NCBI GenBank assembly: GCA_964492965.1
Contig: CAZBME010000015.1
Span: 13,927 to 77,926, forward strand
Length of the DNA stretch: 64,000 nucleotides
Direction: 5' to 3'
Origin: an uncultured Syntrophaceae bacterium
GTDB taxonomy: Bacteria > Desulfobacterota > Syntrophia > Syntrophales > UBA8958
Shown: positions 16,992-58,869 of the stretch, one piece after another
Layout: every line of letters begins with the position of its first letter
How positions within the stretch are numbered: the stretch's first letter is position 1
The notes under the pieces: model-generated
Database searches by the model: none
Told to the model about the DNA's origin: nothing
Seen by the model: only the letters and a program-made list of their open reading frames with translations
Program-made: the position numbers and the translations under genes

Positions 16992-17870
16992 ATGAAAAAA
17001 GGTTTGTCCCTTGTTTTATTTCTCATATTCTTAAGCAATCCCGGCCATGTCTGGGCCGAAGGCGCCAATATCTTCAAGATTGGCGAAAGTGTCATCGTCG
17101 ATAGCGGGACCAAAGTGAGCTCGGTCACGACGATCAACGGCCAGATCACCATAAACGGCAAGGTGGAAGGCAATGTGACCGCTATCGGCGACTCCATTGT
17201 CTTGACGAAAAGAGCGGTTGTCGAAGGCAATGTAACCAGCATCGGCGGTGTGGTTGTCCTCGGTAAAGGGGCTGAGGTCCAGGGAAAACTGACGGAAATC
17301 AACTCATCCAATGTTTCGGATGTGATTTCCACGTTGCTCAGCGATGACTGGGAAGGCTGGTCCTGGGTGTGGGCCATTTTTTCCCTGATTATATTTTTCA
17401 GCGTCCTCATCATTGCCCTTCTTCTGGCCGCCCTGCTTCCCGCACACGTACGCGCCGTTTCCCAGGCTATGCAAGCGGAGACATTGAAAGTTACGCTTTG
17501 GGGGATTCTTGGGTTGATTCTGATTGTTCCCCTAGCGGTTCTCCTGACAATCTCCGTTGTCGGAATCGTCCTGATCCCCCTGGAAATCATCCTTGTCACA
17601 TGTGCTGCGCTCATGGGTTTTATTGCCATGTCTCAACTGATCGGACAACGGGCTTACGGCCTCTTCAAAAGAACGAATCGGCATATCATTCGTGAAATAT
17701 TCTGGGGGCTGGTGGTTCTCTGGGGTGTCGGCTGGATACCTTATATCGGATGGATGGTGAAAGTGATTGTCCTGACGCTGGGACTGGGAGCCGTTATTTA
17801 TACCCGCTTTGGTACAGCGCATCACACGGACCCACAGAAACAGATGGCACCGGCGCCAGTCGAAAATTAG
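16992..17870 (+). CDS. Membrane protein with an exported bactofilin-like beta-helix region
   Basis: Signal peptide, repeated V-x-G-N-V-T-x-I-G-G units, then several TM helices. Confidence 0.65.
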   Translation: MKKGLSLVLFLIFLSNPGHVWAEGANIFKIGESVIVDSGTKVSSVTTINGQITINGKVEGNVTAIGDSIVLTKRAVVEGNVTSIGGVVVLGKGAEVQGKLTEINSSNVSDVISTLLSDDWEGWSWVWAIFSLIIFFSVLIIALLLAALLPAHVRAVSQAMQAETLKVTLWGILGLILIVPLAVLLTISVVGIVLIPLEIILVTCAALMGFIAMSQLIGQRAYGLFKRTNRHIIREIFWGLVVLWGVGWIPYIGWMVKVIVLTLGLGAVIYTRFGTAHHTDPQKQMAPAPVEN

Positions 17871-56410: not shown

Positions 56411-56472
56411 AAGATGCCGTCGGTTCTGTCAAGAGATTATTCTGGGTACATGGGTAAGGTTTTTATATTAAA

Positions 56473-56525
56473 GCCCAAGGCAAAACAGCCGACCGCTACG
56501 CTCCGGCTGAATTTTTCGTTACGAC
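56473..56525 (+). mobile_element. Degenerate attC-like site upstream of the nicotinamidase gene
   Basis: CAGCCG-ACCGCTACGCTC-CGGCTG core, L' GCTGAAT, 5-nt spacer, R' GTTACGA; left R'' box decayed (GCCCAAG). Confidence 0.5.
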
Positions 56526-56547
56526 CAAAATAATCGGGAGGAGAAGA

Positions 56548-57210
56548 ATGGTGAATAAATGGGGAGTCATTGTTATAGACATACAAGGCGACTTTACGGA
56601 ATGGAAGCAGGGTAGCCTTGCCGTGCCCGGTTCGGACGAAGGTTATGTAAAAAGTGTTGAGACCACCACCCGGCAACTGAAAGAGCTTGGCGTCGCTATT
56701 TTTGGCACTCAGGATTGGCATACCCCTGATCACGTCTCTTTTGCTACCAGCCATCCGGGAAAGAGACCTTTCGAGACAGTGGTGATTGGTGGAGAAACGC
56801 AGGTTCTCTGGCCGCCCCATTGTATCCAGGGGACGGAGAATGCCCGTGTACTTATAGACAACAACCTCCTTCTTGCAGTGGTAAAGAGTGCGCAAAACGA
56901 TGATGTTGAAAGCTATTCCTTCTTTCAGGACGGGAACGGCACAAAAACAGAAATGGACACCATACTGCGGATAAATGGGGTTGAGAATGTTATCGTCTAT
57001 GGGATTGCCACAGAATACAGCGTGAGGGCAACATCTCTGGACCTTGTTGCGGCCAACTACAAAACCACTGTCATTGGCAGTCTGTGTCGAGGCGTTTCTT
57101 CCGACATTGCGGCAGTCGCACTCGATGAGATGAGAAATAAGGGTGTGAGGGTGATCACCACACCGGAAGAGATCATTGAGGAAATCCGTCGGGAAAATGC
57201 CTGCAAATGA
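56548..57210 (+). CDS. Nicotinamidase/isochorismatase family protein with catalytic Cys replaced by Ser
   Basis: IDIQGDF, GSLAV, TQDWH, WPPHC, ESYSFF, GIATEYSV (normally DYCV); RBS GGAGG. Confidence 0.88.
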   Translation: MVNKWGVIVIDIQGDFTEWKQGSLAVPGSDEGYVKSVETTTRQLKELGVAIFGTQDWHTPDHVSFATSHPGKRPFETVVIGGETQVLWPPHCIQGTENARVLIDNNLLLAVVKSAQNDDVESYSFFQDGNGTKTEMDTILRINGVENVIVYGIATEYSVRATSLDLVAANYKTTVIGSLCRGVSSDIAAVALDEMRNKGVRVITTPEEIIEEIRRENACK

Positions 57211-57249
57211 ATATATGGAAAAGCTGATTATATCGGGAATTTCGGTAAA

Positions 57250-57308
57250 GTCACAACCTCCGCATCCACCGGATCGGAGCAAGCTGCATCTCTTCTGCTG
57301 ATGCTGGT
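57250..57308 (+). mobile_element. Degenerate attC-like site downstream of the nicotinamidase gene, interrupted at its R' box
   Basis: R'' (G)TCACAAC, 5-nt spacer, L'' CAT(C)CACC with an extra C, L' GCTGATG. Confidence 0.5.
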
Positions 57309-57489
57309 GTATGCTGGGCATGGCAAAGAGCTATCAGGGGCGAACGTTCCTGAACCAAGTTCTCGCGGAGCCGGAGGCTAGGAGAATGACAAGGGCGTCA
57401 TCGTAAGGCGGGCCTGGAGGACGCCCAATCCGAAAGCACGGGGCGACAGGACCGGAGAAACAGGGACATCGATTTGCCTGCTACTCAAC
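57309..57489 (+). mobile_element. Internally deleted group IIC intron remnant (5' domain I plus domain VI/3' end; no ORF, no domain V)
   Basis: Starts GTATGCTGGGCATGG; contains CAAGGGCGTCATCG...CTGGAGGACGCCC; ends GAG..CAGG..CCTGCT-A-CTCAAC with the A at position -7. Confidence 0.7.
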
Positions 57490-57518
57490 TGCGGCATTTT
57501 TCAAAGGTCTCAATTAAC

Positions 57519-58391
57519 CTATAATGCCAATCCCAATATACGGCCGGCATTTCTGAGATACACCTTTTCCAGAATATCGGTTTTATATCCTTCATTCACC
57601 CAGTCCTGAAACAGGCGCTCATAGGAAAACCAGGGATGGTCGGAACCGAACATAAACCGGTCCTGGAGCCGTCCGTTGATCTCACGCTTCAATTCCGGGG
57701 GGAAGTACTTCGGAGACCAGCCGTGAAGTTCGTTATGGACATTCGCTTTATGCATCAACACCGCGATCATTTCATTCTGGAACGGCCATGCGCAATGGGC
57801 GGCAATGATGGTCATGTTGGGATATTGTATGGCAACCTCATCAACATAGGGGATGGGATTTTCATAGCCCAGATGAACCCCGCCGCCGCCGGGCGTTCCC
57901 TGACCGACGGCCGTCATGCCGACGGACAACTTGACCGGAAGGCCGGCTTCGGCACATACATCAAATAAAGGCCGGTATAATTTATCGTTCACCGGGATGC
58001 CCGTCAGAATCGCACCGGTATAGATACCCATCATGCCTGCATCCTTGATGCATCTTTCCAGTTCCCGGGCGCCGGCATAACCGAGCCGGGGATCAATGTC
58101 GCCCCAACAACCGAGAACGGTGTCCGGATAGGTCTTTTTAAGATGGCCCATGTAATCATGCATTTCCCTGATCTCGGCCATATCCCGACCCGCTTTGGCA
58201 AAGCCCATGGGGCTCATTAAAATGGCCTTGACGCCCGCATCTCTGATCCCGTCGATAAACTCTCTCTCCGGCATGAAAGCGGATTCTCTCTTGAATACGT
58301 TACGGGCCAGCGTTTCAATGCCTTCCGGATCGGGGTGGTAAGGCATGGACTCTCTGGTGAAAGTCTGCACCTGGACATCAATGGCTTTCAT
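57519..58391 (-). CDS. Amidohydrolase_2 family protein (CouO-like) with an altered metal site
   Basis: GQGTPGGGG, IIAAHCAWP, GWSPKYFP, FGSDHP; N-terminal IDVQVQ in place of IDxHxH. Confidence 0.85.
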   Translation of the reverse strand: MKAIDVQVQTFTRESMPYHPDPEGIETLARNVFKRESAFMPEREFIDGIRDAGVKAILMSPMGFAKAGRDMAEIREMHDYMGHLKKTYPDTVLGCWGDIDPRLGYAGARELERCIKDAGMMGIYTGAILTGIPVNDKLYRPLFDVCAEAGLPVKLSVGMTAVGQGTPGGGGVHLGYENPIPYVDEVAIQYPNMTIIAAHCAWPFQNEMIAVLMHKANVHNELHGWSPKYFPPELKREINGRLQDRFMFGSDHPWFSYERLFQDWVNEGYKTDILEKVYLRNAGRILGLAL

Positions 58392-58440
58392 GCGCCTGTC
58401 TCCCTTCATCATGATCGGTTCTGTTGAATCCCCTATCCTG

Positions 58441-58869
58441 TCATGCGGCAATATATATCCCCCGCCTTTCCTTCCTGATCTTACCCATTTTCTCCGCTCT
58501 GTAAATAACAGCCCAGATCTGTTTATCCGTCAAACCCGTCCTCTTTTTCAATTCCGTTGTCGTGATACCCTGCTTGCTATCCAGAATGAGCTGCAGGACC
58601 GTATTCATTTTACTGCCCCTTTTCGCTTTCTTCCCTTCGGCGGTTTTGGGGACCGCTTTCTTTAGCTCACGCGCGTTCCGCGCCGGTTTTTCTTCCCCGG
58701 TTTTTGCTTGACGGGCCGTTCCCCTCGCAGAAACCTTGACGGAACTCACCGTCATGCCGACCAACATGGATTGAATTTTGTCAAAATAGGTTTTCACAAA
58801 CTTCTCGGACCCTTCAATCTCAATCTCTTTCGTGATCGGATTAAACTTGATGCGCGACTGTTCCGTCAT
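58441..58869 (-). CDS. Basic hypothetical protein with a C-terminal winged-helix-like domain
   Basis: EIEIEGSEKFV N-terminal domain, K/A-rich linker, GITTTELKKRTGLTDKQIWAVIYR...GKIRKERRGIY; RBS AAGGAGG. Confidence 0.75.
   Translation of the reverse strand: MTEQSRIKFNPITKEIEIEGSEKFVKTYFDKIQSMLVGMTVSSVKVSARGTARQAKTGEEKPARNARELKKAVPKTAEGKKAKRGSKMNTVLQLILDSKQGITTTELKKRTGLTDKQIWAVIYRAEKMGKIRKERRGIYIAA

Follow-up and report, generated by a model that had tools for sequence, protein, structure and literature searches.

A probable relic of a class C group II intron in a Syntrophaceae genome, composed of a domain I piece joined to a scrap of the reverse transcriptase ORF

What is the 181-bp element that lies between two convergent genes of an uncultured Syntrophaceae bacterium, and does it still have the parts of an intron? 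It was found in a 64,000-nt stretch of DNA (here called the window) on contig C15 of an assembly of 3.70 Mb in 58 contigs that is 94% complete (G000). The initial annotation of the window described it as a miniature group IIC intron with both termini, inserted into an attC-like site, and the letters that it quoted were confirmed at positions 57309 to 57489. The element sits in a 308-bp spacer that separates an isochorismatase/nicotinamidase family gene (56548 to 57210, + strand; Pfam PF00857, E = 6.7e-17), which ends 98 nt upstream of it, from a convergent downstream gene of the Amidohydro_2 family (57519 to 58451, - strand; Pfam PF04909, E = 4.4e-30), both of them taken from the ORF list. In our reading, to which we assign a probability of about 0.8, it is a twice-deleted relic of a class C (group IIC) intron, in which a piece of domain I is joined to a scrap of the reverse transcriptase (RT) ORF. 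The surviving relic, 57309 to 57484, is ~176 nt long and has no catalytic core; neither splicing nor movement is expected of it, and it is most probably inert DNA.

The 5' part of the element, 57309 to 57456 on the + strand, is a remnant of intron domain I that corresponds to intron nt 1 to ~153. A covariance model (R1), prepared from eight relatives with the window left out, matched 57309 to 57463 (+), the first matched base being exactly 57309, with a score of 103.9 bits (E = 6.7e-24); the second-best match in the 64 kb had an E value of 0.63. The domain I helices are still paired in this alignment, and small deletions are located near the end of the remnant. When 339 genomes of Syntrophales, G000 included, were searched by BLAST, 57307 to 57447 was matched in 11 of the 338 other genomes, with identities of 73 to 89% and E values down to 2e-34. 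The exon/intron boundary (marked by a slash) reads GT/GTATG in the window, compared with GT/GTGTG in six of seven aligned relatives and GG/GTGTG in the seventh (G015_C110; alignment A1); the intron 5' end of the window is thus GUAUG in place of the GUGUG common to all seven relatives, a single substitution of G3 to A. A 5' end of the GUGYG type, altered at this one base, is found together with homology to domain I. The group IIC domain I motifs listed in the initial annotation therefore represent real homology, its 5' boundary at 57309 is correct, with the 5' splice junction preserved, and its description of the element as a collapsed derivative of a group IIC intron is supported by R1 and by the class C relatives.

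The check with Infernal and Rfam that had been suggested gave a divided answer. No Rfam family was matched over the whole window at gathering scores, and over 57100 to 57700 no group II family was matched even at E ≤ 10, the only match being a chance one to Srn266; of the 170 positions of RF02001, the remnant retains only ~60. The loci of the relatives, on the other hand, do match group-II-D1D4-3, and R1 does match the window, indicating that a relic this short can be missed wholly by Rfam and yet be found with a lineage-specific covariance model.

We classify the relatives, which are 1.9 to 2.0 kb long and come from Syntrophales genomes, as true class C (IIC) introns on the basis of their Rfam D1-D4 and Intron_gpII matches, of an RT closest to that of GsI-IIC, and of their insertion after hairpins. 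The loci matched by the 5' piece carry group-II-D1D4-3 at up to 128.6 bits, with D1D4-1 directly downstream. Three of the introns are full length (1,889, 1,990, and 2,022 nt, the longest holding masked N). Intron_gpII, which covers domains V and VI, was matched at 39.9 bits in locus L037 and at 41.0 bits in L038; it had no match at E ≤ 0.5 in L063, in which the 3' end was placed by sequence. The ORFs of the relatives consist of RVT_1 and GIIM and have no endonuclease domain. Among solved RTs, the RT of one relative is most similar to that of GsI-IIC (442.9 bits), followed by 7UIM (334.8 bits) and 5HHL/5HHJ (~290 bits), whereas the same protein reached 114.6 bits against a IIB RT and 106.9 bits against the IIA RT LtrA.

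The remainder of the element had been read as a stem like that of domain VI, carrying a bulged A and ending in AY, such that both intron termini would be kept. This interpretation did not hold, as the tail shows no likeness to the end of an intron above the null level. Aligned with the last 60 nt of the three full-length relatives, the tail (57448 to 57489) scored at the null mean (1,271, 1,220, and 1,208 of 2,000 shuffles were as good), and its alignment with the continuation of domain I was likewise null (867, 738, and 1,011 of 2,000 shuffles). The hairpin in this segment has a folding energy of -7.5 kcal/mol with a z-score of -0.56, which was equaled by 55 of 200 shuffles. Intron_gpII gave no match in the element at the gathering score or at E ≤ 10, and the 3' ends of the relatives' introns gave no BLAST match to it; domain V, a domain VI with a branch-point A, and a 3' splice site were not found.

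The 3' portion of the element is instead derived from the RT ORF, and no 3' terminus is retained. The segment 57451 to 57484 (+) corresponds to the codons just upstream of YADD; within it, 57455 to 57484 translates to EKQGHRFACY, compared with EKRGHRFARY in the RT of locus L128 (identical at 25 of 30 bases and, in frame, at 8 of 10 residues). Among 300 random 30-mers of the window, none reached 25 of 30 and one reached 24. The best local alignment of the tail with each whole intron fell at the same homologous ORF site in all three full-length introns, where 1, 4, and 9 of 300 shuffles scored as well; in L037 this site is intron nt 1190 to 1226, inside the RT ORF before YADD. The RT region was also taken from 30 loci of the order, 26 of which were kept after duplicates and segments shorter than 150 nt had been dropped, and the best tail match lay at the homologous position in 24 of these 26 segments. 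With an nhmmer profile of the 26 segments, whose 231-nt region was picked after the tail match had already been seen, 57451 to 57484 was the top match of the 64-kb window on both strands (E = 0.062); in the 3.7-Mb genome it ranked eighth (E = 3.6), which is not significant on its own. [quoted passage not shown] It is persuasive because strand, colinear order, frame, a position right after the domain I piece, and the near-repeat at the junction combine. Of a class C RT/maturase ORF in domain IV, only this scrap of 30 to 34 nt remains, and the case illustrates that a plausible-looking "domain VI" can be a piece of RT ORF. Homology to the intron ends after TAC (57484). The next five bases, TCAAC (57485 to 57489, +), have no homology to the intron; they show a weak pattern match to the GAAG/GAAA that precedes the repeat end in other copies of the flanking repeat described below, and they may be filler or part of that repeat.

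The two pieces meet at a deletion junction (57445 to 57456, +) with a loss of ~1,046 nt. An internal deletion junction had been predicted at about 57445 to 57455, and this was borne out, since the homology to domain I stops within 57447 to 57456. Past this point, the relatives run on as ...GGGGCGAC-GAACAGGAACCGGATAYGAGG, as do true-intron contigs of the same metagenomes, which diverge from the window after 57448. The junction is located in a near-repeat formed by the 10-mers AGGAACCGGA of domain I and AGGAACTGGA of the RT ORF, which align as GACGAACAGGAACCGGA and GACAAGGAACTGGA, respectively. When domain I nt 131 to 175 of L037 are compared with the rest of that intron, they match best at intron nt 1177 to 1208, which is the ORF site. 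Repeats internal to the intron appear to guide its collapse.

From these observations, we infer a route of decay with two deletions. A full-length, RT-encoding class C intron of ~1.9 to 2.0 kb would have inserted on the + strand downstream of a hairpin, at ...GCTGA-N7-GT/. A first deletion would have removed the ~1,046 nt between the near-identical 10-mers of domain I and the RT ORF, either by DNA slippage or illegitimate recombination or by a template jump of the RT at insertion. A second would have removed the ~660 nt that lay beyond the RY codons preceding YADD, and with them the remaining ORF, domains V and VI, and the 3' splice site, perhaps along with part of the 3' exon. Point changes would have built up, one of them the G3-to-A substitution at the GUGYG 5' end. 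The part of domain I that bears EBS1 went with the deletion, and the junction with the original 3' exon has been lost; the GT at the exon end is common to six of seven relatives.

The flank upstream of the element (57232 to 57308, +) is the former 5' exon, characterized by its fold, by alignment A1, and by a similarity to repeats. It holds two hairpins (57258 to 57279 and 57283 to 57308), and the fold of 57254 to 57308 has an energy of -17.6 kcal/mol (z = -2.1). A target-like motif, GCTGA, is found at 57297 to 57301 and is followed by 7 nt ending in GT, compared with GCTGA-N9-10 and then GT/intron in the relatives; c57295, g57297, t57299, and a57301 are invariant in all eight sequences of alignment A1. 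In the full-length relatives, the hairpins ahead of the intron are stronger and terminator-like, and one of them is followed by a T-run. The insertion point of the element thus lies shortly 3' of a stem-loop and outside coding sequence, in agreement with its earlier placement after a hairpin and between two convergent genes.

On the other side, the element is followed by the right-end motif of a MITE-like palindromic repeat (57490 to 57513, +; TGCGG plus CATTTTTCAAAGGTCTCAA), which abuts the stop codon of the downstream gene and was recognized by matches within its own genome and across the order. Starting at 57490, TGCGGCATTTTTCAAAGGTC is identical at 20 of 20 positions to positions 65500 to 65519 of contig C21 of the same genome, and eight other genomes contain matches to CATTTTTCAAAGGTCTCAA of 21 to 29 nt at 90 to 100% identity, amid unrelated flanking sequence. 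Allowing at most one mismatch, the 14-mer was counted 383 times in G007, 348 in G294, 85 in G038, 76 in G008, and 9 times in G000, and reversed patterns, used as controls, gave 0 to 5; the count of 9 in G000 is to be compared with a control count of 5. At 30 loci of G007, palindromic MITE-like repeats are bounded by the motif on the right and by its inverted form on the left. We also noted that this end motif, CATTTTTCAAAGGTCTC, with GAGACCTTTGAAAAATG as its inverted form (loci L069 to L098), is conserved in different families of the order and has unrelated flanks. The 383 and 348 copies of the 14-mer occur in genomes of 2.8 and 3.0 Mb, respectively, and many copies lie at contig ends; the repeat may be a MITE, REP-like, or of another kind. 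Part of the left flank of the element, 57232 to 57272, colinearly resembles the interior of a repeat type of G007. For the best unit, L073, 4 of 1,000 shuffles were as good, and for five other units of G007 the numbers were 24 to 366 of 1,000. On these comparisons, which are suggestive only, the spacer resembles a MITE-like palindromic repeat that has degenerated.

The same sequences had been taken for an attC-like site in the initial annotation. In PMC3053210, the attC consensus is given as RYYYAAC and GTTRRRY; the candidate boxes agree with it at five of seven positions each (TCACAAC, and GTTGCGG after restoration), and the restored GTT presupposes a 3' boundary for which there is no support. 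Integron context was screened by the IntI profile and by gene orientation: the flanking genes are convergent, and the best match to TIGR02249 in the 94%-complete genome was 86.5 bits against a cut-off of 265 bits, matches below the cut-off, and none above it, being also found in 14 of 14 control genomes. Neither attC core boxes nor an integron context was found, and because of the box mismatches, the lack of an integrase, and the unsupported GTT, we read the 3' flank as a repeat end and not as attC.

The initial annotation had left the nature of the element to its copy number, a mobile, MITE-like mini-element being expected in several copies with the same deletion junction, and a fossil in a single copy with a unique junction. 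The element is single copy in G000. The tail and junction (57448 to 57486) had no match in any other of the 339 Syntrophales genomes, and the exact junction 24-mer was absent elsewhere from the genome and metagenome contig collections searched. On these grounds the mobile mini-element is refuted, and the fossil is kept. The assembly of G000 contains no other intron either, with no match to Intron_gpII, none to D1D4-3 above the cut-off, and no group II RT (TIGR04416). An exact 24-mer search for more introns among the genome contigs yielded two loci. The search for a full-length parent succeeded in part, in that the full-length relatives described above were found at 73 to 89% identity, but no close parent (>90% identity) was present in the genomes and contigs searched.

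The search for an empty allele found none. The genome G001, of the same genus, has no match to the region and no isochorismatase at E ≤ 1e-40; the amidohydrolase homologue of G035 and the isochorismatase orthologue of G280 (71% amino acid identity) have different neighbors; and the 25-nt left flank was unmatched in metagenome contigs. Four metagenome runs hold the locus, and every contig that spans it carries the element, without joints. The element is fixed in the population sampled by these runs (4 of 4), which belong to one study and two of which are possibly the source of this DNA; since contigs drop rare variants, a rare empty allele may exist.

How far do other explanations account for these data? 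That the element is a 181-bp miniature IIC intron with both termini at the GT/T of an attC-like site, possibly a non-autonomous mobile one, is already largely refuted, and we regard it as extremely unlikely. Its 5' end and junction position are correct, a weak tail hairpin with an unpaired A does exist, and two-ended minis of this intron family in three other genomes make the concept realistic; however, the tail compares with domain VI at the null level (1,208 to 1,271 of 2,000 shuffles as good), the hairpin is unexceptional (z = -0.56), and it is the RT ORF that the tail matches. In addition, the proposed attC cores miss the consensus at two of seven positions each in a genome with no integrase over the cut-off, and the element is single copy, with no further copy of the junction in the genomes and contigs searched. 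If the tail is not an intron end, it might be no intron sequence at all, and the element would be a plain 5' fragment from 57309 to ~57456 followed by unrelated or filler sequence (57457 to 57489) that resembles the ORF by chance. The shortness of the ORF match, its nhmmer E values (0.062 for the window, 3.6 for the whole genome), and the one random 30-mer in 300 that reached 24 of 30 are compatible with this, as are 5' fragments of relatives that stop abruptly nearby (in G299:C81 at ...GGGGCGACGAA and in G027:C67 at ~nt 127). We nevertheless consider it unlikely, given that the same ORF site was the best in all three introns and in 24 of 26 RT segments and that the tail continues from the shared 10-mer repeat on the same strand, colinearly, and in frame with 8 of 10 residues.

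A different view is that the remnant has been exapted, as a bidirectional terminator, a 3' untranslated region structure, or an outward promoter like Pout of the IIC-attC introns, for which promoters within domain I are documented in PMC3001079. It would fit the presence of the element in all four metagenome runs that hold the locus and the domain I helices that still pair in the covariance model alignment. A scan of 57309 to 57489, however, revealed no terminator-like or promoter-like site, and the whole spacer folds no better than shuffles on either strand (z = -0.87 and +0.74). Searches of G001 recovered neither the element nor this isochorismatase gene, and the four runs come from one study, such that fixation says little; a retained function of this kind is hardly credible.

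The twice-deleted class C relic can be compared with several known systems. With class C introns such as GsI-IIC (PDB 6AR1) and the Eubacterium rectale intron (7UIM), the element shares the domain I homology over its 5' 150 nt and the insertion just 3' of a hairpin, outside genes, insertion after intrinsic terminators or stem-loops being described as a class C habit in PMC4424553 and PMC7306698. Unlike those introns, it keeps only ~9% of the length, without domains II to VI, an intact ORF, or a 3' splice site, and it begins with GUAUG and not GUGYG; it is a fragment of an intron. FRE652, an RmInt1-related relic of Sinorhizobium, is likewise an old intergenic 5' relic that lost its 3' terminus, which is presented as the usual route to inactivation in PMC4181065. 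The element differs from it in being IIC and not IIB-like as RmInt1 is, and in an extra internal deletion that joins domain I to the RT-ORF scrap via a 10-nt near-repeat. The IIC-attC introns (S.ma.I2) are also of class C and also target DNA stem-loops; they form a monophyletic subset that inserts in the bottom strand of attC within cassette arrays, according to PMC3001079, whereas the element has no attC consensus, integrase, or cassette array, and its full-length relatives sit after terminator-like hairpins. Finally, ORF-less introns (C.te.I1) have, like the element, lost the intron-encoded protein by deletion, but according to PMC4424553 they keep the whole ribozyme, domains I to VI, which the element does not. 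The relic is an ordinary genomic fossil of a known kind of element. The locus itself matters little, being one more truncated group II intron, and PMC4424553 gives truncation or inactivation as the condition of most bacterial group II intron copies.

Of more interest than the window's relic are the high-copy repeat family described above and other derivatives of these introns in related genomes, namely, minis and a multicopy ORF-less IIC intron. The two-ended minis, ~116 to 118 nt long, consist of intron nt 1 to ~97 fused to the 3' strand of domain VI (...CTCCCTATCCCGAT). They are located at L068:579-694 (G326:C118:14578-14693), at L135 (G299:C61:18743-18860, - strand), and on the - strand of L067 (G072:C56, around 17479 to 17588). 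The three genomes represent two families and have a single copy apiece, the flanks being unrelated; the window's genome has none. Their junction falls in a 9- to 10-nt repeat, CCGCGAGGC, common to the domain I tetraloop hairpin and domain VI; they could reflect a recurrent collapse or the spread of one mini form. A pattern search that pointed to four places had included G246:C29 as a fourth mini, but this proved to be an ordinary terminator hairpin and not an intron.

The ORF-less IIC intron is 602 nt long (L039:2438-3039; G027:C40:40437-41038) and matches RF02001 at 128.6 bits and RF01998 at 57.8 bits (domains I to III), and its 3' end shares 85 to 88% identity with the terminal 86 nt of full-length relatives. 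Copies of its first or last 51 to 53 nt, at 100% identity, lie at the ends of contigs C67, C45, C76, and C32 of G027, which implies some three copies of the intron. The genome is 96% complete, and a search of it for a group II RT (TIGR04416) was negative, although an unassembled RT copy is possible; ORF-less bacterial introns without a resident RT are called very rare in PMC4424553. Short intergenic 5' fragments were also found on the - strand of L066 (1907 to 2071; G299:C81) and at L041:3131-3282 (G027:C67), the former ending in ...GGGGCGACGAA, a few bases from the position of the window's junction, and holding a 24-nt insertion. These fragments were found with a 5' query, and their 5' bias is an artifact of ascertainment. 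The IIC introns of this Syntrophales lineage may repeatedly yield short derivatives via internal repeats, one joining domain I to the RT ORF, as in the window, and another joining the tetraloop hairpins of domains I and VI. It is conceivable, and in our judgment very unlikely, that some of the derivatives, possibly including the ancestor of the window's element, were formed by RT template jumping and spread as non-autonomous elements mobilized in trans, and were not each a dead end that arose in place.

Minor ORFs were noted around the locus. A 294-amino-acid ORF antisense to the isochorismatase gene (window 56437 to 57321, - strand) and an ORF of ~45 codons that runs from an ATG in the repeat-end motif through the intron relic (57363 to 57497, - strand) both look spurious. 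A small ORF at 58441 to 58869 (- strand), which adjoins the amidohydrolase gene, has matches to AbiEi_4 and HTH_11 and resembles an AbiEi antitoxin-like regulator.
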